A stretch of 64,000 nt of DNA, taken from NCBI GenBank assembly GCA_963707305.1, contig CAVPPZ010000024.1, forward strand, positions 12,457 through 76,456. The letters are read 5' to 3'. A program made the translations under genes and the position numbers. The notes beneath the pieces are model-generated. The model was not told the origin of the DNA, ran no database searches, and saw only the letters and a program-made list of their open reading frames with translations. Shown here piece after piece: positions 2,412 through 57,265 of this stretch. Every line of letters begins with the position of its first letter. Within the stretch, counting starts at the first letter, position 1. This stretch comes from an uncultured Candidatus Rokubacteria bacterium. Lineage in GTDB: Bacteria > Methylomirabilota > Methylomirabilia > Rokubacteriales > CSP1-6.

Positions 2412-2491
2412 TGACATGGGGGTGCGAGGCGCACCCCCCAATCCCCCCACGCTCCGCGGCCCGGCAAAGCCGTGCCGCTCCGCGACTGCCG
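2412..2491 (+). repeat. Structured intergenic repeat (REP-like), copy 1
   Basis: TGACAT-G run...C run-AAT-C run followed by hairpin GCCCGGC-AAA-GCCGTGC and GCTCCGCGACTGCC; matches reverse complement of 26071-26152. Confidence 0.8.
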
Positions 2492-4522
2492 TTACTCCGC
2501 TGCCACCTCGACGCGCGCGTCGTTGAAGCACGCGCCCTCGGCGATGTCCGCGTGCGTGGCCGGACACAGCGCCGAGACGGTCTGGCCGTTGTCGCTCGTG
2601 CGGAACCACGCGCCCTTCAGCGAGCACACCACCCCGGGCGGGATGACGTCGGTCACGCGCAGGGACAGATGCACCTCGCCGAGATCGTTCCACACGCGCA
2701 CGCGCATGCCGTTCGTGAGGCCGCGCGCGGCGGCATCGGCCGGGTGCATCTCGAGCGGCGGCGCCGTGCTGCCGTTCACGCCGCCGAAGGTGGAGGTGAC
2801 CATGCGATCGGAGGCCGGTGAGATCAGCGCGAGCGGGTAGCGTGACTCGACCGGCGCGAAGCGGGGCAGCCGCGCGCCGTACTTCCCCTCCAGGTACGAC
2901 GATGCGAGCTCGACCTTGCCGGATGGGGTACTCGGGAAGACGTTCTCGAACATCACGTATTCCTTGCCGCGGGCCGTCATCGCGAGCGCGCGGTCCGTCG
3001 GGATCTCGCTCGGCCGCATGCCGCCGAGGCGCGCGTCGGACGCATCGAGCGCATCGTCCATGAGCTGCGCGTCGGTCGCCGTGAAGATCGGGTCGGTGAA
3101 GCCGAAACGCGCGGCGAGCCGGCGGAAGATCTCGGTGTTCGGGAGCGACGCGTGCTGCGGCGCGATCACGCGGTCGGCGCGCTGGAGCCAGTGCGTCCCG
3201 TACGCCGCGTAGAGATCGGGATGCTCGAAATGCGTGGACGCGGGGAGGACGACGTCCGCGTACAGCATGCTGTCCGTCATCGCGACGTCCGAGCCCACCA
3301 CGAAGAGGTCCTCGCGCGCGAGGCCGCGGCGCAGCCGGTTCTGGTCCGGATGCACGATCACCGGGTTGTGGTTGTAGATGAACACGCCCTTGATCGGCGG
3401 GCTCAGCGCGGGATCGAGCAGGTGCGCCCCCACGTCGATGATGTTCAGCGTGCGCGTGCCGGCCGGCACCAGGTCCGGGCGCTGCAAGATCCGCGGGGTC
3501 TTCGGAAACGCGTAGCCGGCGCCGTTGACGAGACCGCCGCCGCGCACGCCGAACTTGCCGGCGAGCGCCGGCAACGCCAGCACCGCGCGGATGCCGCTGC
3601 CGCCGTTCTGGTTGCGCTCGAGCCCGTTGCCGACGCTGATGGCGGCGGGCGACAGCGTCGCGTACCACTCGGCCAGCGTGCGGATCTGGCTCTCCGGCAC
3701 GCCGCACACGGCGGCGGCCGTCGCGACGTCGTAGCGGCGCGCCAGCGCCATGAACTCGTCGAAGCCTTCCACGTGGCGCGCGATGAAGTCGCGATCCAGC
3801 GCGCCGCGCCGCTCGAGCTCGGCGGCCACCGCCCACGCGAGCACCACGTCGGTGCCCGGACGCAGCGCGATCTGCAGATCCGCCTGCCGCGCGATCGGCG
3901 TACGTCGCGGATCGATCACCACCAGCTTCGCGCCGCGCTTGCGCGCGCGGTTGATGACCGGCATGAAGTGCAGGTTCGACCACGTGACGTTGTTGCCCCA
4001 CGCCACGATGAGCCGCGCGTGCTCCGCCTGTTCCGGCCGCATGCCGGGGACGGTGCCGAACGTGCCGGTCCACGCCTCGACGCGGATGCCGCCGCACAGC
4101 GGCTTGCGGTCGAGCAAGGTCGCGCCGAGCCGGTGGAAGAAGCGGAGATCCATGGAGCCGCCGGCGAGGAAGCCGTGCGGCCCGGCGTAGTTGAGCGGGA
4201 GAATTGCCTGCGGACCGTGCGCCGCGATGATCGCGCTGAAGCGCGCGTGGATCGTGTCGATCGCGTCGTCCCACGAGATCGGCTCGAAGCGCGGTTCGCC
4301 TCGCGCACCCACGCGCCGGAGCGGCGTCTTGATCCGTCGCTCGCCGTGGACGAAGCCCGGATACATCGCGGGCACCTTCGCGCAGAGGACGCCGTCGGTG
4401 TACGGATTGGCGTGCGATCCGCGGATGTTGACGATGGTCTCGTCCTGCACGGTCACCGTCAGGCTGCACGTATCCGGGCAGTCGAGGGGACAGACGCTGC
4501 GCCGCTCCACCGTCGTCGCCAT
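2492..4522 (-). CDS. Molybdopterin (bis-MGD) oxidoreductase family protein
   Basis: CPLDCPDTC Fe-S motif, GVLCAK, ADVVLPAS and C-terminal MHPADAAARG Mo-binding domain; AGGAG RBS. Confidence 0.9.
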   Translation of the reverse strand: MATTVERRSVCPLDCPDTCSLTVTVQDETIVNIRGSHANPYTDGVLCAKVPAMYPGFVHGERRIKTPLRRVGARGEPRFEPISWDDAIDTIHARFSAIIAAHGPQAILPLNYAGPHGFLAGGSMDLRFFHRLGATLLDRKPLCGGIRVEAWTGTFGTVPGMRPEQAEHARLIVAWGNNVTWSNLHFMPVINRARKRGAKLVVIDPRRTPIARQADLQIALRPGTDVVLAWAVAAELERRGALDRDFIARHVEGFDEFMALARRYDVATAAAVCGVPESQIRTLAEWYATLSPAAISVGNGLERNQNGGSGIRAVLALPALAGKFGVRGGGLVNGAGYAFPKTPRILQRPDLVPAGTRTLNIIDVGAHLLDPALSPPIKGVFIYNHNPVIVHPDQNRLRRGLAREDLFVVGSDVAMTDSMLYADVVLPASTHFEHPDLYAAYGTHWLQRADRVIAPQHASLPNTEIFRRLAARFGFTDPIFTATDAQLMDDALDASDARLGGMRPSEIPTDRALAMTARGKEYVMFENVFPSTPSGKVELASSYLEGKYGARLPRFAPVESRYPLALISPASDRMVTSTFGGVNGSTAPPLEMHPADAAARGLTNGMRVRVWNDLGEVHLSLRVTDVIPPGVVCSLKGAWFRTSDNGQTVSALCPATHADIAEGACFNDARVEVAAE

Positions 4523-4553
4523 CAGGGCTCCTCCTCAGGAGACCTTCACTATG

Positions 4554-5692
4554 TCACGGCCAGGTCAGGCCGTACACGCGCGCGGCGTTGGCGCCGAGGA
4601 TCTGTCGTGCGCTCGTCCACGCCTCGTCGACCGTGAGCGCGCGGAGGGTGACCAGCTCGTCGAGGACGACGTTCAGTCCCCAGCGTCCCCACCGCGCGCC
4701 GAGCCAGAACAGCTCGGGGATCGCGGAAGCGTCGCTCGAGTAGAGGATCTTGCTCGCGGGCGCGAGGCCGAGCAGCTCCCGGAGCACCGTCGGGATGGCG
4801 GCGGCGAGATGCGGGCTGGCGAGACCGAAGTCGGCGTAGACGTGCGGATAGATCGACGCGAGGTAGCCGAGCTCGCGCACGTACGGATAGCTCGCGTGCA
4901 GGAGCACGAACGACACGTTCCGATAGGCGTCGCTCTCGAGCAGCGGGCGCAGGTGGAGAGGATTGGCGGCGAGCAGGTCGACGTCGGCATCGCCGAAGCC
5001 GGTGTGGAACTGCACGGGCAGCGCGAGGCCTTCGGCAATTGCGAGCGCGCGCAGGAGCAGGTAGTCGTTCAGCGGCTTCGTCGCCAGGCGCAGGGAGCCC
5101 GCGCGCCGCGCGTGCTCCTTCACGGGCTCGAACGCCGCGGCGGCCTCCGCGCGCGTGGTCGATCGCACCGCGAGCCCCGTGCGGTACGCGATGATGCTCT
5201 TCAGCCCGACGTAGCCCTCGGCCCGGGCGCCTTCGACGGCGGCCACGAAGGCTTCGAGGACGGCGTCGAACGTGTCGTGGCGAAGGATCAGCGTCCTGCG
5301 CGAGCGTCTCGAGACGCAGGAGCGGCAGCGTGCGACACGGCAGGCGCGCCTCGTGCTCGGCGTGGCTCCACGTCGCGCCGGTCCGGTAGCCGTGATCGAG
5401 GAGCAGCGCGCCGACGTTCGCCTCGCGCAGGAGCCGAGCCGCCAGCGCGTCCGGCGGCGTCTTCTCGCGCGCGACCAGGACCCCCGCGATGGTCGGCGCG
5501 CAGTCGAGAACGATCGCGAGCTCCTTGATCGCCCATCGGAAGAAGACGGTCTCGGGGACGTGGCGGTCGTGCATGGCCGGGTCGCCGCTCTCGGTGAAGA
5601 AGCGCGCGTAGTCGACCGGCGTGAACGGTCCGCCATGCCGGAGCAGGGGATGGCAGTGCTGATCGAGGACCGCGACGGCGCCGAGGTCCAGG
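4554..5692 (-). CDS. Amidohydrolase_2 family protein (FluG N-terminal domain-like), frameshift near 5290
   Basis: LDQHCHP, LKSIIAYRTGL, PVQFHTGFGD, LLHASYPY and KILYSSDA motifs across two frames; start uncertain. Confidence 0.8.
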
Positions 5693-7054
<1,362 letters not shown>

Positions 7055-7079
7055 CGCGGTTGAGTCGTAGGATAGCCGA

Positions 7080-7858
7080 ATGCTCCTCCTCAAGCTCGTC
7101 CTGACCCCGGCGCTGATCGCCGTCGCCAGTCTCGCCGGGCGCCGGTGGGGGCACGCGGTGAGTGGCTGGCTGGTGGGGCTGCCTCTCACGTCGGGACCGG
7201 TCGCGTTCTTCCTCGCCATCGAGCGAGGCCCGTCGTTCGCCGCCGATGCCGCGCTCGGCTCCCTCGCCGGCGCGATCGCCGAGGCCGCGTTCTGTCTCGC
7301 GTACGCGTTCGTCGCGCCCCGCATGGCGTGGCCGGCCGCGCTGGCGGCGGCCAGCGTCGCGTTCACCGTCGTCGCCGGCGCCCTGCAGCAGCCGCCGTTG
7401 TCGCTGGGACCGATCGCCCTCGCGGCCTTCGTGAGCCTGGCGCTGACGCTGTTCGTCATGCCGAACGCGCGTGGCCACGGCGGCGCCCGCGCCGCCGGCC
7501 CGCTGGGATCTGCCGGCGCGCATGGTGATCGCCACCGTGCTCGTGCTGGCGATCACCGAAGCGGCGCCGATGATCGGTCCGCGATGGAGCGGGATGCTCG
7601 CGACGTTTCCCGGTCTACGCGGCGATCCTCACGGTCTTCGCGCATCGTGCGGCCGCCGCGCCGGCGGTGCAGGTGCTCCGCGGCCTCGTGTGGGGCCTCT
7701 TCGGCTTCGCCGGCTTCTTCGTGATCCTGGGCGCGCTGATCGAGCCGGCCGGCGTCGGGCCCGCCTTCGTCGCCGCGAGCGGCGGCGCGCTGGCCCTCCA
7801 GGCGCTGTCGCTCAGGCTCGCGGTTCAGCGTAGAATGGGCGCACTTCGAACCCCCTGA
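7080..7858 (+). CDS. Integral membrane protein (frameshifted)
   Basis: Hydrophobic helices, GWLVGLPLTSGP and GMLATFP internal repeat; spread over three frames. Confidence 0.65.
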
Positions 7859-7887
7859 CCCCGCGACCCGTAACGGAGGACCGATCG

Positions 7888-9601
7888 ATGGCGTACGACC
7901 TGCTGATCAAGAACGGCGTGGTGATCGATGGTTCCGGCCTGCCCCGCTTCCGCGCCGACGTCGGCGTCAAGAACGGACGCATCGCCTCGATCGGCCGCAT
8001 CCGTGAGAGCGCCAAGGAGACGTTCGACGCCGAAGGCCACATCGTCGCGCCCGGCATCATCGACGGCCACACGCACATGGACGCGCAGATCTTCTGGGAT
8101 CCGCTCGGGACCTGCTCGTGCTGGCACGGCATCACCACCGTGGTCATGGGCAACTGCGGCTTCACGCTCGCGCCGTGCGCCGAGAAGGACAAGGGCATGG
8201 TGATCCGGAACCTCCAGCGGGCGGAGGACATCTCGCCCGAGGCGATGGAGGCCGGCATCAAGTGGAAGTGGGAGACGTTCCGCGAGTGGCTCGACGTCCT
8301 CGACGGGCTGCCGAAGGGCATCAACTACTCGGGCTACCTCGGCCACTCCGCCCTGCGCACGTACGTGATGGGCGAGCGCGCGTTCGATCAGCAGGCGAGC
8401 GACGACGACATGCGGCGCATGGAAGCCGAGCTGCGCGACGGCCTGCAGGCCGGCGCCATCGGCTTCACGACGTCGCGGTCGCCCAGCCACGAGACGCCGG
8501 ATCGCCGGCCGGTGGCCAGCCGCGTCGCGTCGTGGGACGAGGTGCGGAAGCTCGTCAACGTGATGGGCGACCTCAACGCCGGTATCTTCGAGCTGGCGGG
8601 CGAGAACACCGATCGCGCGCTCGGCTATCGAAGACGCGCGGCGCGACTATCACGCGCGGCTCAAGGCGCTCGCGGTCGAGAGCGGCCGGCCGATCACGTT
8701 CGGCCTCTTCAGCCGCAAGGACGCGCCCGGCGTCTACAAGGACTACGTGAAGCTGCTCGACGACACGGCGGCGGCGGGCGGGCGCATGTTCGCCCAGGTC
8801 CACAGCCGCGCGCTGTCGGCGATCATGTCGTTCAAGACGCAGACGCCGTTCGACAAGCTGCCGGTGTGGAGCGACATCCGCAAGCTGCCGCTCGCCGAGC
8901 AGAAGGCGAAGTTCCAGGATCCCGCGATGCGCGCGAAGCTCGTGGAGGCCGCGGGCGCGAAGGTCGAGAATCGCTCCCTCGGGACCGAGGCGCGGCCCGG
9001 CGCCTACGAGAAGCTCCTCGTGCTGGACAGCGTCCACGCCACGCATCGCTCGGTGGTGGATCTCGCGAAGGAGCGCCACTGCCATCCGGTCGAGCTGATC
9101 ATGGACCTCGCGATCGAGCGGGACATGAACGTCTTCTTCTTCCACCCGATCGCCAACGAGGACCAGGACATCGCGCTCGAGCTGATGAAGCTGCCGCGCG
9201 CGGTGGTGACGTTCTCGGACTCCGGCGCGCACGTCTCGCAGCTCATGGACAGCTCGCTGCAGACGCACCTGCTCGCCTACTGGGTGCGCGAGCGGCAGGC
9301 CTTCACGCTGGAAGAGGCGGTGCGGATGCTCACGCTCGTGCCCGCGACGCAGTGGGGCTTCCACGACCGCGGCCTGCTCCGCGTGGGCATGGCCGCCGAC
9401 ATGATGATCTTCGATCCGAACACCATCGCCGCCGAGATGCCGGAAGTGGTGCACGACCTGCCGGCCGGCGCGAAGCGGCTCATCCAGAAGACGCGGGGCA
9501 TCGCCGCCACCGTCGTCAACGGCGAGGTGCTGCTCCGCGACGGGAAGCACACGGGCGCGCTCCCGGGCAAGCTGCTGCGCGGGCCGCTCGCGACCGCTTG
9601 A
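7888..9601 (+). CDS. N-acyl-D-amino-acid deacylase-like amidohydrolase, frameshift near 8625
   Basis: PGIIDGHTHMD, VMGNCGF, SDSGAH and RGLLRVGMAAD motifs; GGAGG RBS. Confidence 0.85.
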
Positions 9602-9726
9602 GATGGGGGGCCCGGGACGGGCCCCCCAAGCCCCTCCACGGCCTCCGGGCTGACGTGAAGTCCGCCCTCCGGCGAGTGCCGACGGGCCCAACGCTCGCAA
9701 CCGCCCCGGCTGACGCCGGGGCGGTG
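9599..9726 (+). repeat. Structured repeat copy 2 plus an extra 11-bp perfect hairpin
   Basis: TGAGATGGGGGG...CCCCCCAAGCCCC, then CCTCCGGGC..TGAAGTCCGCCCTCCGGCGAGTG (near-identical to 39801-39877); ACCGCCCCGGC-TGAC-GCCGGGGCGGT at 9701-9726. Confidence 0.8.
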
Positions 9727-9779
9727 CTCGCTCAAGTTCCCGCGGCCCACGGTCGATAGTCATCCCCGAGGCACATGGG

Positions 9780-9935
9780 ATGACCGACTGGCTCCGCGCG
9801 CTGCTCGAAGCGATTTTGACCGAGCAGCCCTCCGCCCGGGAGGCCGCGATCGTCGCGAGCATCGTCCTCATCGTGCCTTTCGGATGGCTCGTGCTCCTCG
9901 TCCGCCCCATCCGCCGCGTGCTCCGCAACCTCTGA
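9780..9935 (+). CDS. Small membrane protein (51 aa)
   Basis: Manual translation MTDWLRALLEAILTEQPSAREAAIVASIVLIVPFGWLVLLVRPIRRVLRNL; one TM segment and a basic tail. Confidence 0.5.
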   Translation: MTDWLRALLEAILTEQPSAREAAIVASIVLIVPFGWLVLLVRPIRRVLRNL

Positions 9936-9985
9936 GAGACTCCGCAGCCGTCCCTGCCCCAGGCATCCCGACGTAGGAGGCGCGT

Positions 9986-10454: not shown

Positions 10455-10479
10455 GTCCGGCGACCGCTGCCCGAGCCGG

Positions 10480-11237: not shown

Positions 11238-11337
11238 GGGGTGTCGTCCTCGCTGCCCCGATCTTACCCGCGACGTTGCCGTTTGTGGGGCTCCTCGCGG
11301 TGATGGTCGCCGACCAGTCCCCGGAGGAGCGAGGCCA

Positions 11338-18481: not shown

Positions 18482-20609
18482 GCTCGCTCCAGGATGAGGT
18501 TCGTGACGGCGTCCACGCGGGCCCGGAAGCCCGGGCGCGACGAGGATGGTGGCGTCCTCCTGATCCACGACCGCGGGCCCGTCGAACGTCATGCCGGGCG
18601 CGAGCCGCTCGCGCGCGTAGCACGGCGTGGTGACGAAGCCGGCGCCACGCTGGTACACGGGACGTTCGCCGACCTGGGCGCTGGCAGCGTCACCGCCGGC
18701 GCCGGGGCGGCGCCGACGCGGCGCGCTGGGGGAGCTGGCCGATCGCGGTGACGCGCAGGTTCACCAGCTCGATCGCGCGCGTTCGGCAGATCGTACGAGT
18801 AGAGCCGGCGATGCTCGGCGTGGAAGCGCTCGGCGACCTGCGCGACGTTGATGCCGATGAGAAATGGGGGGCTTGGGGGGTGAGTCGCTCACGCCCCCAA
18901 TTTCGGTGGGTGAGTCGCTCACGCCCCCAATTCCACATCAATCGTCAGCTCGAAGCTCTGGTGCTCGTAGCGCAGGTCGGCGGACCGCTCGAAGCGCTGG
19001 CGCTCGCGCGGCACGTGCTCGTCGTCGAGCCACGCGCGCGCTTGCGATTCCAGCTCCGCCCACGTCGCCTCGAGCGCCGGCACCGCGGCCGGATCGTCGA
19101 CCGCGTGGCGCTCCGGCGGTGCCCACCGTGCGGACGAACGTGGCGCGGATGTCGGTGTCGAGCAGCCCCCACGTGGAGAGCACGCCCGGCCGCGGCGGGA
19201 TCACGACGGCCGGAATGTCGAGCAGCTCCGCGAGCCGGCACGCGTGCAGCGGCCCGGCGCCGCCGAACGGCACCAGCGTGAAGCGTCGCGGATCGTGCCC
19301 GCGGCCGACCGACACGAGGCGGATCGCGCGCGCCATCGAGTTGTCGATGATCTCGACGATCCCGGCCGCCGCGTCCTCGACGCCGAGCCCGAGCGGCCGC
19401 GCGATCCGCTCCTCGATGGCCGCGCGCGCCGCCTTCTCGTCGAGCGGCACCTCGCCGCCGAGCAGCGCCGGGCTGGATGCGCGCGAGCACGAGATGCGCG
19501 TCGGTCACCGTCGGCTCGGTGCCGCCGCGTCCGTAGGCGACCGGTCCGGGCGCCGCGCCGGCGCTGCGCGGGCCGACGGTGAGCCGGCCGGCGCCGCTCG
19601 CCACCGCGATGCTGCCGCCGCCGGCGCCGATCGTGTGGATGTCGATCATCGGCAGCTTCAGCGGGAACGGCCCGATCGTGCCGTCCTTGGTGATCTCGGG
19701 CCGGCCGCCGCGCACGAGGCAGATGTCGGCGCTCGTGCCGCCCACGTCGATCGAGATGATGTCGTCGATGCCCGCCGCGCGCGCCACGCTCAGCGCGCCC
19801 ACGACGCCGGCCGCGGGCCCGGACAGCACGGTCTGCACGGGCTGGCGCACGCACGTCGCCGCGCTCGTGACGCCGCCGTCCGACTTCATGATGAGGAGCG
19901 GCGCGCGCACGCCCTCGGCGTCGAGCGCGTCGCGCAGCACGCTCATGTAGCGGCTCACCGGCGGCATGACGGCCGCGTTCAGCGCGGTGGCCATGGTGCG
20001 CTCGAACTCGCGGAACTGCGGCAGCACCTCGGACGAGAGCGACACGAGCAGGCCGGGATATTCCTCGCGCAGGATGGCGTGCATCCGCTGCTCGTGCGCC
20101 ATGTTCGCGTAGGCGTGGAGGAAGACCACGGCGACCGCGGGGACGCCGAGCTGCGCGAGCTGCCGCGCCACCGCGCGCGCCTCCGCCTCGTCGAGCGGCG
20201 TCAGCACGCGGCCCTCGTGGTCGAGGCGCTCGGTCACCTCGAACACGCGCTCGGGCGAGACCGGCCGCGCGGGCTTGCTCCAGCCGTACAGGTTGCCGTG
20301 GCGCGGGATGTCGTGACGCCCGATCTCCAGGACGTACTTGAAGCCGGCGGTGGTGACGAGCGCCGTCGGCGGCGTCTTGCCCTCGAGGATGGCGTTGGTG
20401 GCGGTGGTCGTGCCGTGGAGCACGCGGATCACGTCGGCGGGCCCGCGCTGCGCGAGCGCCAGCACCTTGCGGATGGCCGCGATGAAGCCGGCGGAGAGGT
20501 CTCCCGGCGTCGAGGGCGTCTTCGCCACCCAGCTCGCGCCGGTGGCCGCGTCGGCGAACGTCACGTCGGTGAACGTCCCGCCGACGTCGATGGCAAGCGT
20601 TCCACTCAT
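18478..20609 (-). CDS. Hydantoinase A / 5-oxoprolinase family protein (frameshifted; carries a repeat insertion)
   Basis: IDVGGTFTD, HGTTTATNA, SGPAAG, DVGGTS, GAGGGSIA and FGGAGPLHA motifs. Confidence 0.85.
18860..18940 (-). repeat. Structured repeat copy with a 30-bp-period tandem duplication, inside hydantoinase A
   Basis: Minus strand AATTGGGGGCGTGAGCGACTCACCC occurs twice, followed by CCCAAGCCCCCCATTTC. Confidence 0.75.
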
Positions 20610-25074: not shown

Positions 25075-25095
25075 GGCGCGAGTGTACCCGATCCT

Positions 25096-25173
25096 CGACA
25101 TGGGGGGCTCCGGGCGCCCCCAAGCCCCCCGCGCTGCGCGCGCGGGATGAACCCGCACGCTCCGCGATTGCCA
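25096..25173 (+). repeat. Structured repeat copy, left of the MNT-HEPN pair
   Basis: GACATGGGGGG...CCCCCAAGCCCCCCGCGCTGCGCG, hairpin GCGGG-ATGAA-CCCGC, then GCTCCGCGATTGCCA. Confidence 0.8.
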
Positions 25174-25222: not shown

Positions 25223-25648
25223 TCAGCGCGGAACGAGGCGGCTCAGTACGTCGAGGAACACCCGAAGATCGTCAGGTCCTTCCCGTGCTGCGCGGTGGAT
25301 ACGCGCCATGTCCAATCGCTCGTAGGCGTGAGCCACGACGTTGCGGAAGCCGGCCGCTCGTTCGAGCCGTGCGGCGAGCGCGGGGTCGAGATGTCCGGCG
25401 TCCGCCAGGCGACGAAACGCGTTCGCGTATGTGCTCGGCGTGCCGAGCTTGAGGTGGAGGCACGCCGAGACCGCGAGGTCGATCACGATCTGGACGGCCT
25501 GCCACAGATGCAGGATGACGGCATCGGAGGCGTCCGTGGAGGGCGCGAAGTCGGTCACGTCTCGCGGAAGCCGTTCCCCGACACGTGTGAGGTGTCGCTG
25601 CACGGCGGCGACCCTTTCCGCGAGGACGTCCCTGTCGAGCGCACTCAG
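25223..25648 (-). CDS. HepT-like HEPN (DUF86) ribonuclease toxin
   Basis: FRNVVAHAY Rx4H motif and AVQIVIDLA; start overlaps the MNT stop (approximate). Confidence 0.85.
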   Translation of the reverse strand: MSALDRDVLAERVAAVQRHLTRVGERLPRDVTDFAPSTDASDAVILHLWQAVQIVIDLAVSACLHLKLGTPSTYANAFRRLADAGHLDPALAARLERAAGFRNVVAHAYERLDMARIHRAAREGPDDLRVFLDVLSRLVPR

Positions 25649-26043
25649 CGCGACAGCTCCGCCAGGACGTCCTCATACCCGGCTCGGATCACCGGTCCGG
25701 CGTCACACCAGAAGTCGACGGCCTCCCGCCAGAAACGCGCGAACGCGTCGGGGTGTGCCTCGAATACCACGCGGCCGTCGCGCGCGACGCGAAACCTCAC
25801 CAGGCCCCCGGCGCGTGCCAGATCGACGAGGTCGATGCGGTCGGAATCGAGAGCACGGACGAGGTCCAGCAGCAGCGCGTCGCGATCCAGTCGCTCGTCG
25901 GCGAGGTAGGCGACGTCCCAGTCCGAGACTGCCGTGGCGTCTCCGCGCGCACGCGATCCGAAGACGACGGCGAGCTGCAGGCCTGGATGGCGCCGGCACA
26001 CTTCCGAGATGACACGGAGCGCGGAGGCGTCATCTTGACGCAT
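25645..26043 (-). CDS. MntA-like minimal nucleotidyltransferase antitoxin
   Basis: FGSRARGD..SDWDVA and IDLVDL motifs; directly upstream of the HEPN gene. Confidence 0.85.
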   Translation of the reverse strand: MRQDDASALRVISEVCRRHPGLQLAVVFGSRARGDATAVSDWDVAYLADERLDRDALLLDLVRALDSDRIDLVDLARAGGLVRFRVARDGRVVFEAHPDAFARFWREAVDFWCDAGPVIRAGYEDVLAELSR

Positions 26044-26070
26044 GACACCATCGTAGCAGAGCACTGTCGA

Positions 26071-26152
26071 TGGCAGCCGCGGAGCGGCACGGCTTCGCCG
26101 GGCCGCGCAGCGCGGGGGGCTTGGGGGGGCGTCGCGCCACCCCCCGATGTCA
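26071..26152 (-). repeat. Structured repeat copy, right of the MNT-HEPN pair (inverted relative to the left copy)
   Basis: Minus strand TGACATCGGGGGG...CCCCCCAAGCCCCCCGCGCTGCGCGGCCCGGCGAAGCCGTGCCGCTCCGCGGCTGCCA. Confidence 0.8.
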
Positions 26153-27145
26153 ACGAGGCGCGCAGGCGCGGAGGGCGGCGACGACGCGCGCTTTCGGGTC
26201 CGCGCCGCCGCCGCGCGGAGTGACGATCGGCAGCGCGATGCCGGAGGCGCGGTAGCGCTCGATCTTCGCGCGGCACTCGGCCGGCGTGCCCGCGAGCGCG
26301 ACGGCGTCGATCAGCGCGTCGGGGACGAGCCGCGCGGCGCTATCGCGGTCGCCGCGGTCCCAGGCCGCCTTGATCGTCGCGACGGCATCGGCGAAGCCCG
26401 CCTCGGCGAGCAGGCGGTTGTAGCGCGGGAAGAAGCCGACGTAGAACGCGATGCCCGGGCGGAGGCGCTCGCGCGCCTCGTCGCCGCTGTCCGCGACCTG
26501 GCACGGGAGCAGCGAGGCGATCTCGACGTCTTCCGGCTTACGGCCCGCGCGCCGCGCGCCGATCGCGACGTTCTCCCTCGCCCGTCGTCCGGACTCCAGC
26601 GTGGGGTAGGTGAGGAGAATGCCCTGCGCGAGCGCGCCCGCGATCTGCAGCATGGTCGGGAACAGCGCCGCGAGATAGATCGGCATCTCGGTCCGTAGCG
26701 GCCGGAACCAGAGCTCGAAGCGCTCGATGCTGATGACCTCGCCTTTGTAGGCGACGACGCCGTCGCGCAGCAGCGCGCGCACGATGGCGACGGTGTCGCG
26801 CAGACGGGGAATCGCCTGGCCGAAGGGGATGCCGTGCTCGCCTTCGACCTGCACCTTGTGGCTCGAGCCGAGCCCGAGGATCAGCCGTCCGCCCGACAGG
26901 TGATCGACGGTCGCCGCGGCCATCGCGATCGTGGGCGCGCTGCGGACGAACACGCTGGAGATGGCGGTGCCGAGCTTGATGCGCGTGGTCGCGACCGCGC
27001 AGGCGCCGAGGATCGCGAACTGATCGCCGGCGTGGCCTTCGGTCATCCAGGCGGACTCGTAACCGAGCTCTTCGGCGAGCCGTACGCAGTCGACGATCTC
27101 GCCCGGGGTGAGGCCGCTGCTGCTGAAGCCGACGCCGGTGCGCAT
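26150..27145 (-). CDS. LLM-family oxidoreductase (Mer/F420-type-like)
   Basis: AEELGYESAWMTE, TTRIKLGTAI, LSGGRLILGLG and PIYLAA motifs. Confidence 0.85.
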   Translation of the reverse strand: MRTGVGFSSSGLTPGEIVDCVRLAEELGYESAWMTEGHAGDQFAILGACAVATTRIKLGTAISSVFVRSAPTIAMAAATVDHLSGGRLILGLGSSHKVQVEGEHGIPFGQAIPRLRDTVAIVRALLRDGVVAYKGEVISIERFELWFRPLRTEMPIYLAALFPTMLQIAGALAQGILLTYPTLESGRRARENVAIGARRAGRKPEDVEIASLLPCQVADSGDEARERLRPGIAFYVGFFPRYNRLLAEAGFADAVATIKAAWDRGDRDSAARLVPDALIDAVALAGTPAECRAKIERYRASGIALPIVTPRGGGADPKARVVAALRACAPR

Positions 27146-27181
27146 GACGGGCAAGTGTAAGATGCGCGCGCGTCTCAGGAA

Positions 27182-38723: not shown

Positions 38724-39803
38724 ATGAAGCGATCGAGCGGGCGCGACGTGTCGGCGGTGCTGGAGTTCCTGCGGGAGATCTATGCGCAGCCGGACGTGAA
38801 CGGCTTCGTCCAGCGAGCCGTCGATAGGTTACCGCGCCTCATCGCCGCCGACATGTCCTCGTTCAACGAGGTCGACCCGCGGACGGGGCACTACCGGACG
38901 GTCGTCACGCCGCCCGGGGCGGATCTCTTCCCGCACAGCGAGGAGATCTTCGAGCGCCACGTCCGCGACCATCCGTACGTCGTCAACGTCCGGCGATTCG
39001 AGGATGGCGAGGCCCACGCGCTCTCGGAGTTCGTGAGCCGGGCAGACTTTCGCCGCTCGGCGATCTACAACGAGTACTACCGGCACACGCGCACCGAGCA
39101 TCAACTGGCCATCGCCGTGCCCGGGGCGGGGTTCCAGGTGCGGGGATTCGCGCTCAACCGGGGGCGCCGCGATTTTTCGGCAGGGGAACGGCGCCTGCTC
39201 AGCGCGCTCGGCCCTCATCTCGTCCAGGCCCACCGCAACGCCGAGTTGCTGGCGAGCGCGGCCCGCCACGACGGCCCCGCCGACGGCGACCGGACGACGA
39301 CCGACGTGGAGGTGGTGCTCCTGTCGAGCGGCGGAACCGTGCAGTTCGCGACGCCGCGCGCCCGCTCGTGGCTCGCCTCGTACTTCGGCGGATCGCGCGC
39401 CCGCGACGGCCGCTTGCCCGGGACGCTGGCCGACTGGTTGAGCGCGCAGGCGTCCGCGCTCGAGGGCGGCGACGGTGTGCCGCCGCCGCGCCGGCCGTTC
39501 GTCGTGGGAAGCGAAGGCGCGCGACTCGAGATCCGGGTCGCGGAGTGGGGTCAGCGTGCCCTGCTCGTCCGCGAAAGCCGTCGGGCGTCGTCCACGGAGG
39601 TTCTCGTGGCGCTCGGGCTCAGCCCGCGCGAAGCGCAGGTGCTCGCGTGGGTGGCCGAAGGCAAGACGAACAGCGAGATCGGGATCATCCTGGGTGCGCG
39701 CCCGCGCACGGTCGCCAAGCATCTCGAGCGGATCTTCCGGAAGCTGGGCGTCGAGACGCGGACCGCCGCCGCCGCCTCGGTCCTGCATCGTCCGACCGTT
39801 TGA
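38724..39803 (+). CDS. LuxR-type HTH regulator with N-terminal GAF-like sensor
   Basis: GLSPREAQVLAWVAEGKTNSEIGIILG..RTVAKHLERIFRKLGV; ALNRGRRDFS in the sensor region; divergent from the giant gene. Confidence 0.88.
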   Translation: MKRSSGRDVSAVLEFLREIYAQPDVNGFVQRAVDRLPRLIAADMSSFNEVDPRTGHYRTVVTPPGADLFPHSEEIFERHVRDHPYVVNVRRFEDGEAHALSEFVSRADFRRSAIYNEYYRHTRTEHQLAIAVPGAGFQVRGFALNRGRRDFSAGERRLLSALGPHLVQAHRNAELLASAARHDGPADGDRTTTDVEVVLLSSGGTVQFATPRARSWLASYFGGSRARDGRLPGTLADWLSAQASALEGGDGVPPPRRPFVVGSEGARLEIRVAEWGQRALLVRESRRASSTEVLVALGLSPREAQVLAWVAEGKTNSEIGIILGARPRTVAKHLERIFRKLGVETRTAAAASVLHRPTV

Positions 39804-39877
39804 CATGGGGGGCTCCGGGCGCCCCCCAAACCCCCCACGCCTCCGGGCGGACCTGAAGTCCGCCCTCCGGCGAGTGT
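39801..39877 (+). repeat. Structured repeat copy starting at the LuxR stop codon
   Basis: TGACATGGGGGG...CCCCCCAAACCCCCC, then hairpin GGCGGAC-CTGAA-GTCCGCC; near-identical to 9599-9680. Confidence 0.82.
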
Positions 39878-39922
39878 CGTTACCCGACTACACACTCGGA
39901 TCGGATCGTATACGATCGGGTC

Positions 39923-48453: not shown

Positions 48454-48520
48454 CGGGGCCTCCTTGGGACGAGCGTGACCGGCGGCGCGAGTGTACCCCA
48501 GCATGCTCCGGCCGGAACCG

Positions 48521-49678: not shown

Positions 49679-49680
49679 GG

Positions 49681-51492: not shown

Positions 51493-51626
51493 GGTGGGCC
51501 TCTTGGCTGCCTCGGGCTCGTCGGCCACGCAGCATAGTCCGCCGGACGGTCGGGCTGTCAAGTGCGCGTGGCTCCGCATGAGACGCCGATGCGCTATGCT
51601 CCGCGACAACGGCGAGCGAGACGCGG

Positions 51627-52415
51627 TTGGCAGAGCAGGCAACGGTCGTCATCACGGGCTCGGGCGGGCGCATCGGCACGCTCCTGCGACACGCGCTGGC
51701 CGGCGTCTATCGTGTGCGTGGCATCGACCGCGTCCCGACGCCCGGCCTGCCCGGTGCGCTCGTCGCCAGCCTGACGGACTTCGACGCCATCCTGCCCGCG
51801 TTCGCGGGAGCCGACGCCGTGGTCCACCTCGCCGCCGATCCGCGCCACACGCCCGACATCTGGTGGGACACGCTGATCCCGGACAACGTCGTGGCGACGG
51901 CCAACGTGTACGAAGCCGCGCGGCGGGGCGGGGTGAAGCGCTTCGTCTTCTTCAGCTCCATGCACGTGTGCGGGCTGTACGAGACCGATCCCCCGTGGTC
52001 CCGGATCGCGACCGGGGACTACGCGGGCCTCGATCCGAGCGGCGTGCCGCTGGTGACCGCCGACATGCCCGTCCGCCCCGACGGCCCGTACGCCGTGAGC
52101 AAGGTCTTCGGCGAGGCGCTGGGCCGGTACTACGCCGAAGCGTACGGGATGGAGGTGGTCGTGGTGCGGCTGGGGACGGTCGGACGGGACGACAAGCCCG
52201 GCAGCGACCCGCGCAGCTTCGTGTCGTGGCTGAGCCACCGGGACCTCGCGCATCTCACGGAGCGCGCCATCGGCGCGGCCGACGTCACCTACGAGGTCGT
52301 CTTCGGCGCCTCCAACAACACGTGGAAGATCTACGACACTCCTCGCGCGAGCTCGCGGCTGGGCTACGCGCCGCGGGACGACGCCGAGCGCTTCCGCAAC
52401 CCACGGCAGAGCTGA
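51627..52415 (+). CDS. NAD-dependent epimerase/dehydratase, uronate dehydrogenase-like
   Basis: ITGSGGRIG, VVHLAA, RPDGPYAVSKVFGE, WLSHRD and LGYAPRDDAE. Confidence 0.75.
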   Translation: MAEQATVVITGSGGRIGTLLRHALAGVYRVRGIDRVPTPGLPGALVASLTDFDAILPAFAGADAVVHLAADPRHTPDIWWDTLIPDNVVATANVYEAARRGGVKRFVFFSSMHVCGLYETDPPWSRIATGDYAGLDPSGVPLVTADMPVRPDGPYAVSKVFGEALGRYYAEAYGMEVVVVRLGTVGRDDKPGSDPRSFVSWLSHRDLAHLTERAIGAADVTYEVVFGASNNTWKIYDTPRASSRLGYAPRDDAERFRNPRQS

Positions 52416-52444
52416 GCCCGCCTGCGCGCAAGGAGCTGACGACC

Positions 52445-53359
52445 ATGGCACCTCTCGAAGTCCACGACCCGGGCCTGCACGATCTCGTCGCTCCCGACGC
52501 CCCCATCGACCGCATCGCCGGCGGGCTCGGGTTCACCGAAGGGCCGGTGTGGCGCGGCAATGCCCTGCTCTTCAGCGACATCCCGAACAAGCGCATCGCG
52601 CGGTGGCGCCGCCTGCCGGAGGGGCCGGAGCTGACCACCTTTGCGACGGGCATGTCCAATGGCCTCACCCTGGATCGGCAGGGCCGGGTGCTCGCCGCCG
52701 AGCACGACGGCCGCCGCGTGAGCCGCGTCGCCGACGACGGAACGCGCACCGTGCTCGCCGAGCAGTTCCAGGGCAAGCGGCTGAACAGCCCCAACGACAT
52801 CGTGGTGAAGTCCGACGGCTCCATCTACTTCACCGACCCGCCGTACGCCGTCCAGCCCGGCACCCCGGGCGTGCCGCGGCCTGCCGGCTGGTGGACCCGA
52901 CCGATCCCCGGCAAGGAGCAGCCGTGCCACGGCGTGTACCGCATCGCCCCGGACGGAGCCCTCCACCTGCTGATCGACGACTTCGCGCTGCCCAACGGCC
53001 TCGCGTTCTCGCCCGACGAATCCGTGCTCTACATCGACGACTCGGCCCACAAGCACATCCGCGCGTTCGACGTGCGTCCGGACGGCACGCTGAGCGGGAG
53101 CCGCCTCCTGCTGGACATGGCGTCCGATGACCCCGGCGTGCCCGACGGCCTCAAGGTCGATGGGCAGGGCAACGTGTTCTGCACGGGTCCGGGCGGCGTC
53201 TGGGTGTGCCGGGCGAACGGCACGCTGCTCGGGCGCATCGTGCTGCCGGAGCTGCCCGCGAACCTGGCCTGGGGCGAGGATGGCAGCGTGCTCTTCCTCA
53301 CGGCGCGCACCAGCGTCTACCGGCTCCCGACGAAGACGCGCGGAACGCTGCTCGCCTGA
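52445..53359 (+). CDS. SMP-30/gluconolactonase family protein
   Basis: FTEGPVW, NSPND, PNGLAFSPD and PDGLKVD; AAGGAG RBS. Confidence 0.9.
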   Translation: MAPLEVHDPGLHDLVAPDAPIDRIAGGLGFTEGPVWRGNALLFSDIPNKRIARWRRLPEGPELTTFATGMSNGLTLDRQGRVLAAEHDGRRVSRVADDGTRTVLAEQFQGKRLNSPNDIVVKSDGSIYFTDPPYAVQPGTPGVPRPAGWWTRPIPGKEQPCHGVYRIAPDGALHLLIDDFALPNGLAFSPDESVLYIDDSAHKHIRAFDVRPDGTLSGSRLLLDMASDDPGVPDGLKVDGQGNVFCTGPGGVWVCRANGTLLGRIVLPELPANLAWGEDGSVLFLTARTSVYRLPTKTRGTLLA

Positions 53360-53416
53360 CGTAGGCTGCAGGATCTCTGGCGAGATTCGTTCGGGCGCGT
53401 ACTAGAATCGTCTCAC

Positions 53417-54546
53417 GTGTCCGGGTCCCTCGACCGCCCCACCTCCGCGCGGGCCAATGACGTGTCCACGCGCGCCGCGGAAGGCCGCGCCTCGGCTACC
53501 GACACCGCGCCCGAGCGCATCCACGAGCTGGCCCAGCAGTTCACGAAGCGCATCAGCGCGGCGGCCGAGGAGATCGGGACGATCAACTCGCAGGTCCGCA
53601 TCCTCTCGTTCAACGCGCAGATCGAGGCGGCGCGCGTGGGGGATGCCGGCCGGGCGTTTCGCGTGGTGGGCGAGGAGATGGTCACGCTCGCCGCGCGGAC
53701 GGGCGAGGTGGCCGGCCGGCTCAAGGAGGAGATCCAGGGCGACGCGCAGGAGCTGGCCGCAGATCAGCCAGACGCTCGCGACGACCGTCCGCGGCGTCCG
53801 TCTCGCCGACCTCGCGCTCACCAACATCGACCTCGTCGATCGCAACCTCTACGAGCGGTCGTGCGACATCCGCTGGTGGGCGACCGACAGCAGCGTGGTC
53901 GAGGCGCTGGAGACGCGCAGCCCGCAGGCGCTCCGCTTACGCCACCCGGCGGCTCGGCGTCATCCTGAAGGCGTACACGGTGTACTCGGACATCGTGCTC
54001 GCGGACGCGACCGGGACGATCGTCGCCAACGGGCGGCCGACGCAGTACCGCTCGCAGGGGACGAACCACGCGACCGCCGAGTGGATGCGCTCGGCGATGG
54101 CCACGGCGAACGGCGACGAGTTCGGGTTCGAGTCGGCGCACCGCTCCCCGCTCGCGGGCGGCGAGCCGGTGCTCGTCTACTCGTGCAAGGTCTGCCGCGG
54201 CGGGGACCCCGCCGGCGAGCCGATCGGCGTGCTGGGTACGGTCTTCAACTGGACCGGCCTGGGCGAGAAGGTCGTCAGCGACACGCCGCTCGCAGCGGCC
54301 GAGAAGGCGCGCACGCGATGCTGCCTGTTCGATCGCGCGGGCCGCCTGCTCGCCGACAGCGACGGCAAGGCGCTCACGGAGACGCTCGACCTCGCGCCGC
54401 TCCGGACGCTGCTCACCCAGGCGAAGGGATTCGCGGTGCTCGACTACAAGGGCGAGCGCATGCTCTGCGCGCACGCCCAGTCGCCGGGCTTCGAGACCTA
54501 CGCGACCGGGTGGCACTCCCTCATCATGCAGAAGGTCGGACGCTAG
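53417..54546 (+). CDS. Soluble chemoreceptor-like protein: short MCP signalling hairpin plus C-terminal Cache-like domain (frameshifted)
   Basis: ILSFNAQIEAARVGDAGRAFRVV, DRNLYERSCDIRWWATD and SPGFETY. Confidence 0.75.
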
Positions 54547-54701
54547 CTTCCGCGGCGACGCGCTGAGCCACGGCCTCGCTCCTGGTGCATTCGACCCAGA
54601 AAAGGAGCGCAGCCGGCGGATTGATCGACAGACCCTGTTCGCCATTCCATGTGGTATTAGCGGTCGTGGAGCCCGTCGCTGCCTGATCAGGAGGGTGCGT
54701 C

Positions 54702-55643
54702 ATGCTGGGACTGGGAATGGCGTCGAGTCACGCACCGATGATGTTCCAGAAGGCGGAGTACTGGCCGAAGATGGTGGAGCGCATCCCATCTGAAGCGCGG
54801 GAGCACCTGCCGCACAGCGCCAGGGTGGAGATCGCGACGCCCGCCATCATCGACGGGCACATCCAGCGCATCGAGGCCGCGTTCGCGGCGTTGCGCGCGC
54901 AGGTGAAGGCGTATCGACCGGACGCCTTGATCCTCATCGGTGACGACCAGGGCGACATGTTCGACGGCGCCAACAATCCCACGTTCTCCATCTACACCGG
55001 CGACGAGCCGCTGTGGGGGCGCAGCGCCCGTGACCCCTTCGGGGTCCCGTCCGCGGAGCGCACGAAGCTCGTCTTCCGACAGCACGCCGAGCTGGCCCGC
55101 CATCTCCTGCGCGGGCTGATCAAGCGAGACTTCGACGTGGCCAACCTCGGCAAGTTCGACCCGCGCGGCAACCCCGCCCGCGGCGTCTCGCACATGGTCT
55201 CCAATCTCGTCCCCGAGGTCGATCCGGGCCTCGAGATCCCGCTGGTCTGCGTGTTCATCAACGAGTACTTCCCACCGCTGCCCAGCGCGGCGCGCTGCGC
55301 GCGCCTGGGCGAGGCCATCGCCGACGTCCTGCGCGACCGGCCCGAGCGCATCGCGATCTACGCGTCCGGCGGCCTGTCGCACTACCCGGGGATGTACAAC
55401 GCGGGCTGGATCGACCAGCCCCTGGACCGCTGGATCCTCGAGCGGCTGGCGCGGAACGACGTGGAGGCCCTCGAGCACCTCTTCACCTTCGACTCCGACA
55501 CCCTGCGCTCGGGCACGGGCGAGGTGCGGGCGTGGATCAGCGTGGCCGCCGCGATGCAGCGGCCGGCGACGGTGATCGACTACGTCCCGGCGCATTGCAC
55601 GCAGACGGGGTGCGGCTTCGTCTGCTGGCCGCCTCTGGCGTAG
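54702..55643 (+). CDS. LigB-like (class III) extradiol ring-cleavage dioxygenase
   Basis: SSHAP, IGDDQ, SH, ASGGLSHY and GTGEVRAW. Confidence 0.8.
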   Translation: MLGLGMASSHAPMMFQKAEYWPKMVERIPSEAREHLPHSARVEIATPAIIDGHIQRIEAAFAALRAQVKAYRPDALILIGDDQGDMFDGANNPTFSIYTGDEPLWGRSARDPFGVPSAERTKLVFRQHAELARHLLRGLIKRDFDVANLGKFDPRGNPARGVSHMVSNLVPEVDPGLEIPLVCVFINEYFPPLPSAARCARLGEAIADVLRDRPERIAIYASGGLSHYPGMYNAGWIDQPLDRWILERLARNDVEALEHLFTFDSDTLRSGTGEVRAWISVAAAMQRPATVIDYVPAHCTQTGCGFVCWPPLA

Positions 55644-55654
55644 GGAGTCGACCG

Positions 55655-57223
55655 ATGGCTGTCGCCGCAACCGCGCTGCTCCAGCAGATGGACGACTACA
55701 TCCTCGACGGCAAGTATCACGAGGCCACGGACGCGTACTGCCGGCTGATCGTGGAGAACCCCGCCCGGGCGGCGCAGGTCACCACCCACGCCATGACCAC
55801 CGCGGCCCCGTACCTCCACGTGCCCGCGCACCACAAGCTCCTGCCCAACGGGGAGTTCCGCAACGTCAACTACGACCACACTCTCCTCGGGATCCGCGCG
55901 GGCCTGCGACTCCAGCCGTGGCTCTCCGAGCGCGAGAAGTACCTGACGCTGGCCCAGGCCATGTGGTACGTGCCGCAGGGACTGGACGTGTGGGCGCAGC
56001 TCGAGTGCGGATTCCCGGGCCACTACGCGCGCGAGCAGGAGAAGTGCGCGGAAGAAGTGCTGCAGACCAACAAGCAGCTGCACTGCCACTTCAAGGATCG
56101 GGCGCCGCTCGTCGACGGGTCGATCGACGAGCGCTTCCAGCGGATGTTCCACGCCATCGTCGGGGGCGACAAGGTCACGGCCTACCGGCTCTTCCTGGGG
56201 CTGGCGGCCGAACCGGCGCTCCGCGACCGCGTGAAGAACGAGCTGCTCTTCGCCGCCATCATCGATCAGCAGGAGTTCAACTCGTTCCGGCGGGTCCGGC
56301 ACATCGGGCACAAGGCGATCCGGACGCGCTCCATGCTCGACGTCGCCGACTGGGTCGGCTGGGAGCAGGCGCACCCGTACTTCTACATCGGGGTGCCGGA
56401 TCTCTGTAATGCGCCGATCTTCCACTCGCTCTACGATCACGCCAGCTTCCTGCTCGGCACGACCTTCAAGGGCGCGCAGTACCGGTTGCACGAGACCAAT
56501 ACGTCCGCGCTGACCGAGGACGAACAGGACCAGCTCATCGGGAGGATCCTCGCCGGCGACCCGTTCGCCGTGACGCACGAGATCACCGCGCTGCTGCGAA
56601 AGGGACGCGCGCTCACGCGCATCGCGGACATGGTGATGATCGCGCACGCCACCCACTGCGTGGAGCGGCTGCGCACGCCCATCGCCTACACGGTGCCGAT
56701 GCACGCCTTCGACTACGCCAACGCCGTCAACTACTGGCTGCGCAACTTCTCGCACACCCACCAGCCGAAGGCCGTGTACCTGAGCGCCTGGTTCGTGACC
56801 GACACCATCCGCGAGGTCGACTGGTATCCGGACGATCCCGCGGTGGCCAGGCCGGATGCGGCACCGTTCCGGGACTGGGCCGATCGCCTGTCCGCCTCGG
56901 AGGTGCTGGCCGAGCTGGAGCGGACGATCGCGGCCCAGGATCCTTCTCGCTCGGTCGCCCTGGTGCGCTCGTACCAGGAGCGCACCGGCGAGCGCGACGC
57001 GCTGATCCGGATGCTGGTGCACTGCGCCGCCAAGTTCCAGGGCGACGCGCACATCTTCCGCAACGCGCGCTCGATCATCGAGGAGTACGAGCAGAACTCG
57101 GCGAGCGCCCGGCGCAAGGACGTGCTGTTCCAGGCCTGGGCGCACTACCTGGCGTTCTACAAGAAGCGGACGCTGTCGACCGAGTGCTACGACCTGTACC
57201 ACCATCACTTCGGCGGTGCGTAG
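55655..57223 (+). CDS. Hypothetical all-helical protein with four His-containing repeats
   Basis: Intact 522-aa ORF with GGAG RBS; motifs NYDHTLL, IGHKAI, PMHAFDYANA and DAHIF. Confidence 0.75.
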   Translation: MAVAATALLQQMDDYILDGKYHEATDAYCRLIVENPARAAQVTTHAMTTAAPYLHVPAHHKLLPNGEFRNVNYDHTLLGIRAGLRLQPWLSEREKYLTLAQAMWYVPQGLDVWAQLECGFPGHYAREQEKCAEEVLQTNKQLHCHFKDRAPLVDGSIDERFQRMFHAIVGGDKVTAYRLFLGLAAEPALRDRVKNELLFAAIIDQQEFNSFRRVRHIGHKAIRTRSMLDVADWVGWEQAHPYFYIGVPDLCNAPIFHSLYDHASFLLGTTFKGAQYRLHETNTSALTEDEQDQLIGRILAGDPFAVTHEITALLRKGRALTRIADMVMIAHATHCVERLRTPIAYTVPMHAFDYANAVNYWLRNFSHTHQPKAVYLSAWFVTDTIREVDWYPDDPAVARPDAAPFRDWADRLSASEVLAELERTIAAQDPSRSVALVRSYQERTGERDALIRMLVHCAAKFQGDAHIFRNARSIIEEYEQNSASARRKDVLFQAWAHYLAFYKKRTLSTECYDLYHHHFGGA

Positions 57224-57227
57224 CTGT

Positions 57228-57265
57228 CCGGGGGGCCTGGGGGCGACCGGGTGTCGCCGACGTCA
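57228..57265 (-). repeat. Degenerate structured repeat copy at the vapC stop
   Basis: Minus strand TGACGTCGGCGAC..GTCGCCCCCAGGCCCCCCGG, same hairpin-C run-ARG-C6 layout. Confidence 0.45.

Follow-up and report, generated by a model that had tools for sequence, protein, structure and literature searches.

We analysed 64,000 nucleotides (nt) of DNA from an uncultured Candidatus Rokubacteria bacterium (assembly GCA_963707305.1, contig CAVPPZ010000024.1), hereafter the window, in which seven related elements recur between genes. We conclude that these elements most probably belong to a modular, non-coding family of hairpin repeats that is non-autonomous as far as seen, restricted to one clade, gained and lost over time, and capping the 3' ends of genes. 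A long form (L) lands at extreme gene 3' ends, and a short form (S) lands beside gene starts. A preliminary description of the same DNA had suggested a lineage-specific repeat resembling repetitive extragenic palindromic (REP) sequences or MITEs (miniature inverted-repeat transposable elements), or a structured RNA of 3' untranslated regions (3'-UTRs), possibly spread by a REP-associated tyrosine transposase (RAYT) encoded elsewhere.

The host genome (G000) comprises 5.63 Mb in 29 contigs, has a GC content of 70.4% and is 68% complete. Scanning it with a core pattern (a G run, 4-24 nt, a C run, a linker of 2-3 nt and a second C run) yielded 248 matches, which confirms that the window elements are part of a genome-wide copy family. 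We assigned 139 matches to L and 64 to S; the other 45 are first-hairpin-only copies together with a few chance matches, e.g., tRNA arms. Chance or low sequence complexity was rejected as the source of the family, as a reversed-pattern control gave 0 matches versus 126 for the motif in the host genome. Rfam 15 gave 0 matches in the 64-kb window at the gathering score, and five copies searched at E<=1 returned only matches of 17-20 bits, versus thresholds of 35-74; the repeat matches no described Rfam family at either gathering or permissive thresholds. Literature searches on repeats of Rokubacteria and Methylomirabilota likewise returned no description of this family among the papers listed.

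The L form is approximately 85-110 nt long and contains two hairpins. Its leader reads (GATTGAY)TGACAT, with (T)GACAT as the conserved left edge in end-anchored profiles, and a minority of copies have a longer leader, GATTGAYTGACAT. In hairpin 1, a G6 run and a C6 run enclose an inner stem-loop that varies, and AAG and a second C6 run follow. From the outside inwards, hairpin 2 has a CGC/GCG stem, an internal loop with conserved TCC/TCC, an inner stem of 8-10 bp that varies, and a GNA or NTGAA loop; the apparent direct repeats that flank it are the two sides of the internal loop, and the whole is one long hairpin, a feature missed in the preliminary description. The tail reads ACTGCCG-TTAC-NCCGACAGRCTCCTAG. 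We found no terminal inverted repeats (the ends of the consensus, GACATGGGGGG and CTGCCGTTAC, do not complement each other), and a scan for target-site duplications at the copies gave no signal above expectation. Head-to-tail L copies are present on five contigs of the host genome (C1, C4, C11, C19 and C29), where the first copy is cut at CGCTC and joined to the GATTGAC-TGACAT of the next; this recurrent CGCTC/GATTGAC junction may be a point within the element where insertion or recombination is favoured. The S form, approximately 42 nt long, contains hairpin 1 only (TGAACAT-G5-CCCCACAACTGAGGA-C5-AAA-C5-T, with TGAACAT as its conserved left edge) and is sometimes found in tandem. Such arrays have an exact 42-nt period, a multiple of three, and two of the six frames are open; in-frame S copies inside genes are conceivable.

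We found that L copies are placed at the extreme ends of genes. When genes were called by codon usage (5532 genes), a gene 3' end adjoined 122 of 126 L copies. Of these, 53 are flanked by convergent genes, 43 follow a gene in the same direction and 26 follow a gene in antisense; the other 4 copies lie between divergent genes. As scored with our first, cruder caller, 62 of 139 L copies have a co-oriented stop codon 0-15 nt before the G run, and only 8 have it at 16-200 nt; the null for a comparable 13-nt stop window is 2.4% of intergenic positions. The stop-codon bias noticed in the window is thus real across the genome. Of 127 L copies, 48 have NTGACAT before the G run, and the leader TGA is itself the called stop in 21-22. 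Moreover, within 13 nt of the G run one or more reading frames are closed in 63 of the 65 stop-hugging copies, in 38 of the 62 others and in 14% of random 13-mers. At the other end, the tail provides stops for the opposite strand, a feature that had previously escaped notice: the stops of convergent genes cluster on the L tail at +0 (the TTA of GTTAC, which reads TAA) and at +16 (the CTA of CTCCTA, which reads TAG), and 11 of the 22 nearest convergent stops are TAA, compared with 6% genome-wide. The association with stops is looser at the right end than at the left. These data demonstrate that the element carries stops at both ends for genes that read into it. Because there are stops in the leader (forward) and in the tail (reverse), the flanking genes end within the element.

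The S form, which the preliminary description had not included, has its own placement: a gene start adjoins 60 of 64 S copies, and only 4 are located between convergent genes. A Shine-Dalgarno (SD) sequence and start codon on the opposite strand are abutted by 21 of 64 S copies, in contrast to 3 of 127 L copies and 2.9% of random positions. No S copy is present in the 64-kb window.

The hairpins of L are preserved by compensatory changes. We aligned 45 copies, 5 from the window and 40 picked for stem diversity from 123 elsewhere, a sample that is accordingly enriched for variants, and scored 989 cells under a model of 23 pairs. Pairing was retained in 90.5% of the cells, compared with 75.5% in shuffled alignments (0 of 500 reached the observed value) and 43-50% when the partners were slid. 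Both-sided changes were found in 16 of 23 pairs versus 9.7 in shuffles (again 0 of 500), and the covariation score was 0.303 versus 0.099. Clearly compensated stems include TGCG/CGCA, CCCG/CGGG, CCTG/CAGG and GGGCGGAC/GTCCGCCC; many of the compensatory changes separate sub-families, and hence represent few independent events. Parsing of hairpin 2 covered 97 of 127 L copies (30 did not fit the parsing pattern), and among the 97 the TCC/TCC internal loop is present in 77 and the outer CGC/GCG stem in 81. These results support the earlier proposal of a structure under selection. We also confirmed that the G run is able to pair with either C run; for the variant with a CTCCGGGCG loop, RNAfold pairs it with the second one.

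Among relatives, 16 of the 41 nearest genomes contain the core motif, as do 90 of 251 genomes across the phylum, tallies that include three unpublished genomes (G011, G024 and G115); no genome had more than 3 matches to the reversed-pattern control. By family, the positive genomes number 87 of 158 in f1, 1 of 21 in f4, 1 of 2 in f11 and 0 of 69 in other families. Some genera are always positive (g34, 12/12; g36, 14/14) and others rarely or never (g35, 0/10; g38, 1/21). Thus, the core motif is restricted to a single clade, of family level, within Candidatus Rokubacteria (Methylomirabilota), and the description of the elements as a lineage-specific, REP/MITE-like interspersed repeat holds, with f1 at 87/158 versus 2/92 elsewhere in the phylum. 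A genome of a different genus, G020, contains 278 motif matches with the same plan in other sequence. In a 381-kb sample of this genome, chosen for density and containing 97 copies (92 of them away from stretch ends), a stop codon lies 3-15 nt upstream of 28 of 81 single or first-of-array copies, versus a null of ~4.6%. At G020 loci L026-L045, many copies have one or two mini-hairpins (GGTGCGCGGACGCACC plus a few bases) nested in the hairpin-2 loop, and these resemble a still smaller insertion module.

Comparisons of orthologous sites reveal the turnover of the family. Filled sites were paired with empty ones across genomes that differ by 8-15%, and some of the pairs lie at rearrangement borders; G001 and G002 are of the same genus as G000. 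Over 60 kb of synteny, G001 has 2 L copies versus 6-7 in the window, none of them orthologous in the same orientation. In the gap that holds the L copy at 9599, G001 contains an L copy in the opposite orientation, which follows a native CTTGAG that is also present in G000. G001 lacks the element at the 2412 site, where the G000 oxidoreductase is 5 codons longer than its G001 orthologue, and also at the 25095 and 26152 flanks. At the 18866 site, G002 shares the first copy, but the adjoining copy is different and oppositely oriented. An S copy is the difference near 48490: G000 has CAT, 5 nt and CCTCCTT followed by unrelated sequence, and G001 has the same start and SD followed directly by S. 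Because G000 keeps the start and the SD without an S copy, the SD beside S belongs to the gene.

Two gene ends could be followed over wider sets of orthologues. For the luciferase-like monooxygenase whose stop coincides with the 26152 end, we examined 20 orthologues out of 80 metagenome loci among the matches listed. The five closest of these matches (88-92% identity) end in RACAP-TAG without the element, whereas the G000 protein ends in RACAPR-TGA-CATCGGGGGG; at the nucleotide level, CCG-TAG in the empty orthologues corresponds to CGT-TGA-CAT in G000. A lineage that is 68% identical, represented by three contigs, ends in RACAVV-TGA-GATGGGGGG, with another G-run element at the same stop. Given that both G000 and this lineage end in a TGA and an element rather than in RACAP-TAG, the native stop appears to have been replaced twice independently; we conclude that a native stop codon has been replaced by that of the element at least once. 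In two of the element-free orthologues (L086 and L087), an ATG lies 5 nt after the TAG stop of the monooxygenase. For the amidohydrolase that ends at 9601, we kept 54 orthologues from 80 loci among the matches listed, after dropping 26 labelled as other phyla. The element is lacking at 49 of these 54 (a few of the loci break off shortly beyond the stop, too early for a full judgement) and present at 5, once forward at 7 nt and four times inverted and further away. The same gene end has therefore been colonised independently and in either orientation, and copies are gained and lost over the time that species take to diverge. The preliminary description had suggested a look for empty orthologous sites: several sites have element-free orthologues, and none is a clean empty site at the level of the footprint.

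Our reading of these results is an old, slowly or intermittently active family whose surviving copies are harmless gene caps. Copies that do the least harm, by bringing an immediate stop that caps the gene, would persist and so produce the stop-codon bias, possibly aided by a preference for TGA-like targets. By analogy with HUH (histidine-hydrophobic-histidine) enzymes acting on REP or IS200/IS605 ends, a mobilising nuclease would recognise the conserved runs, loops and hairpins on single-stranded DNA, and transcribed copies may act as 3' structures on the mRNA. Several observations weigh against this reading. No mobiliser gene was found: the Pfam family Y1_Tnp (PF01797) has 0 matches in G000 (68% complete), G001 (97% complete, 91 copies) and G002 (83% complete). 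Nor does G000, a 68% complete genome, contain a composite of leader, gene and tail such as an autonomous parent would form. The copies are not recent (median best-match identity 0.91, with 0 of 127 L copies having an identical twin), and no footprint-level empty site between near-identical genomes was obtained. The gene calls are our own and crude; the first caller, based on GC at third codon positions, gave shadow open reading frames (ORFs) and missed genes, and was replaced. A model in which copies simply target TGA was rejected, since it predicts 10.8% of copies on true stops and 37% (21/57) were observed; because it under-predicts stops, something beyond target choice is needed. Finally, the compensatory changes and the conserved unpaired nucleotides could equally be explained by selection on an RNA.

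The last point bears on a tentative alternative that we consider possible but on balance doubtful, namely that L is mainly a host-selected RNA device of 3'-UTRs whose spread is secondary, which is compatible with mobility, as for the REPs of Escherichia coli. Possible roles are a terminator that is factor-dependent or lacks a U tract, a block to 3' exonucleases, or a stop-proximal hairpin that modulates termination and ribosome release. Consistent with this, 96 of 126 L copies are co-oriented with a gene whose stop precedes them, only 4 of 126 lie in promoter gaps, and old copies still fold; the hairpins change in a compensatory manner while the unpaired TCC/TCC, AAG and C6 remain constant, and the G6...C6-AAN-C5/6 core is kept across many genera despite differing loops. 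RNase R and PNPase are known to target mRNAs that contain REPs (PMC12320835). However, since most amidohydrolase orthologues (49 of 54) and the five closest monooxygenase orthologues, among the matches listed, lack the element, these genes do not need it. In addition, 26 of 126 copies are antisense to the sole gene end that they touch, the G001 copy in the 9599 gap is inverted where that of G000 is forward, and the consensus has no T run after either hairpin: AAGCCCCCC and ACTGCCGTTAC follow them, and the hairpins therefore do not form an intrinsic (Rho-independent) terminator. None of the sequencing runs recorded as RNA contains the window DNA, every run matching at most 0.10 of the sampled words. 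Four runs (two labelled RNA-Seq, possibly DNA) contain contigs of relatives at 90-99% identity with pile-ups on repeats, and gave neither molecule ends nor a joint in which an element is removed. It is very unlikely that the functional unit is the core of G run, C run, AAG and C run itself, acting as an alternative-pairing switch or as an intramolecular pyrimidine-motif triplex (C+.G-C). Run lengths do shift jointly between the two forms (6,6,6 in 72 of 139 L copies; 5,5,5 in 48 of 64 S copies), the second C run and the 3-nt linker are conserved across genera, RNAfold uses that C run in one common variant, and the geometry suggests a strand polarity suited to a parallel third strand. Within L, however, run lengths are uncorrelated (r = 0.06-0.17), and so the concordance rests on very few founder events; protonation of C+, moreover, requires low pH.

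Two further alternatives concern how copies reach gene ends. A REP or REPIN (REP doublet forming a hairpin) family moved by a RAYT, i.e., an IS200-like Y1 enzyme encoded elsewhere, or, as a variant, a MITE derived from IS200/IS605 that inserts 3' of a TTGA-type target, would account for the asymmetric ends, the subterminal hairpins, the lack of terminal inverted repeats and target duplications, the NTGACAT before the G run (48/127) and the native CTTGAG that precedes the inverted G001 copy. In G020, a contig end (C45, locus L025) has an IS200-like Y1 C-terminal fragment followed by a C6-AATAAATT-G6 hairpin and then by a stretch like the commonest hairpin-1 variant, where the contig stops; this arrangement is also in favour. 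We nevertheless judge this explanation distinctly unlikely. Y1_Tnp was not found in the three genomes of the genus and occurs in 10 of 41 relatives, where its occurrence is unrelated to repeat counts; the intact Y1 genes of these relatives have no such repeats in their flanks; at the monooxygenase stop, TTGA came with the element rather than being a pre-existing target; the GTAG head of REPs is missing; and the orientation of copies tracks GC skew to no greater extent than that of genes (72 of 127 copies versus 54% of genes), which indicates no replication-strand bias beyond that of genes. The RAYT-type transposase of the preliminary description is thus not supported. Of the two modules that we label A and B, module B is almost always found beside module A, and the seven listed orphan pairs are coincidences with other copies. 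It also seems unlikely that a clade-specific mobilising system, recognising the G-run/C-run/AAG/C-run fold (possibly as a triplex or switch), directs L to stop codons, which L overwrites with its own, and S to the outer SD edge. If this were true, the repeats would constitute a class of mobile DNA that seeks gene borders and has no known transposase family.

Within the window, reading and alignment located all seven of the elements originally reported: five are full two-hairpin copies and two are partial, and the second-hairpin stems had been quoted correctly (Table 1). In four copies the TGA of the element is the stop of the upstream gene (9601, 26150, 39803 and 57263), as shown by Pfam matches that reach the protein ends and by the phase of codon-position GC. 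For the copy at 2412, the TGA does directly follow another TGA (2409-2411), but the ORF upstream (1158-2411) matches no Pfam family, and whether it is coding is uncertain. In the same copy, TTA 2492-2494 is the TAA stop of a convergent molybdopterin oxidoreductase gene, 2492-4522(-). The hairpin module appended to the 9599 copy can trail either an L copy, as here, or a first-hairpin module, as elsewhere in the host genome (copies on C2 and C15); the repeat family is a mosaic of interchangeable hairpins. The amidohydrolase gene upstream (7888-9601) shifts reading frame near 8650, as 7888-8650 and 8747-9601 both match Amidohydro_3 in different frames; G001 aligns unbroken across the change, which is a frameshift or an assembly error in the window.

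The copy at 25095 is placed upstream of a reverse-strand gene start, and its 3' end faces the stop of HepT. A toxin-antitoxin pair of MNT (Polbeta nucleotidyltransferase) and HepT, 25223-26064(-), lies between this copy and the inverted one at 26071. We rejected the idea that the pair of L copies forms a composite transposon around MNT-HepT, and judged them to be two ordinary 3'-end copies. In G001, the flanks of MNT-HepT enclose an unrelated 5.1-kb segment. The PIN-domain gene at 57263-57670(-) is VapC-like.

Table 1. Repeat copies and modules in the 64-kb window (positions counted from its first nucleotide).
Feature	Position	Strand	Details
Full L copy	2412..2495	+	Leader TGACAT; hairpin 1 G5-TGCG-AGG-CGCA-C6, then AAT-C6; hairpin 2 CGC/TCC/GCGGCCCGGC-AAA-GCCGTGCCGC/TCC/GCG; tail ACTGCCGTTAC
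Full L copy	9599..9685	+	Hairpin-2 type GGCTGAC-GTGAA-GTCCGCC; TGA 9599-9601 is the amidohydrolase stop
Extra hairpin module	9692..9730	+	CGCTCGCAACCGCCCCGGC-TGAC-GCCGGGGCGGTGCTCG; appended 3' of the 9599 L copy
First-hairpin-only copy	18866..18900	-	TT-G5-CGTGAG-CGA-CTCAC-C6-AAG-C6
Truncated tandem duplicate of the first-hairpin-only copy	18903..18930	-	
Full L copy	25095..25173	+	Leader TCGACAT, without TGA; hairpin-2 type GCGCGCGGG-ATGAA-CCCGCACGC
Full L copy	26071..26152	-	TGA 26152-26150 ends the luciferase-like monooxygenase gene 26150-27154(-)
Full L copy	39801..39883	+	Hairpin-2 type GGGCGGAC-CTGAA-GTCCGCCC; TGA 39801-39803 is the LuxR/GerE regulator stop
Degenerate first-hairpin copy	57230..57265	-	TGA-CGTC-GGCGAC-ACCC-GGTCGCC-CCC-AGG-C6; TGA 57265-57263 is the stop of the PIN-domain gene 57263-57670(-)

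Rokubacteria are abundant uncultured soil bacteria with large genomes, and this repeat occupies a few percent of all gene ends. It shapes gene boundaries, altering C-termini and replacing stop codons, and it breaks metagenome assemblies and confuses gene callers; a model of the family would improve annotation and binning of the phylum. The clean split between L and S offers a natural system for how small mobile DNA finds harmless landing sites, and the failure to find a RAYT points to an unrecognised mobilising activity.

Several known systems resemble the family in part. Miniature elements derived from IS200/IS605, like IS608 and ISDra2 upon insertion, have asymmetric ends, subterminal hairpins, no target duplication and a T-rich motif 5' of the left end. 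Our repeat shares the first three features and has a TTGA-like motif directly 5' of its left end, but differs in that no TnpA was found, no replication-strand bias was detected and TTGA arrived with the element in one well-resolved case. With respect to a fixed, pre-existing target, the native CTTGAG beside the inverted G001 copy fits, but the monooxygenase site, with its CCG-TAG empties, does not. The terminal inverted repeats and target-site duplications of classical MITEs are both lacking. REPs carry a conserved GTAG-type head beside the palindrome; the head of this family is (T)GACAT. Stop-proximal REPs, a minority of those in E. coli, lower expression via ribosome stalling. Like L, they place a stable hairpin within approximately 15 nt of the stop codon; in L, unlike E. 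coli REPs, stop proximity is the modal position (62/139), and the stop is often part of the element.

Mycobacterial interspersed repetitive units (MIRUs), according to one summary, insert at start codons and have an internal ORF coupled to the downstream gene (PMC12548453). L and S resemble MIRUs, so described, in being small mobile repeats at the translation signals of gene borders, which limits damage, and in their strand-specific orientation; the element overlaps flanking translation signals through its leader TGA and its tail TAA or TAG. Unlike MIRUs as described there, L supplies stop codons and, by reading, no start codon, the SD beside S is native, and the elements are rich in hairpins. 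The family also resembles the REPs and bacterial interspersed mosaic elements (BIMEs) of Enterobacteria and pseudomonads, and the REPINs with their RAYT transposases (PMC3116915, PMC3337134). Like those elements, L and S are high-copy, short, extragenic, GC-rich imperfect hairpins (here 248 matches, with covarying stems) that form module mosaics, lie mostly after genes, persist vertically in a clade while varying between species, and are likely present in mRNA 3' ends. L differs in that no RAYT or Y1 gene was found in the genus and in having no obligatory inverted doublets. It is also larger (85-110 nt), its two hairpins are unlike each other and the internal loop is conserved, and its 5' end lies 0-15 nt from the stop codon, with stops carried at both termini. 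We class the family as a REP/BIME-like repeat with unusual gene-end behaviour.

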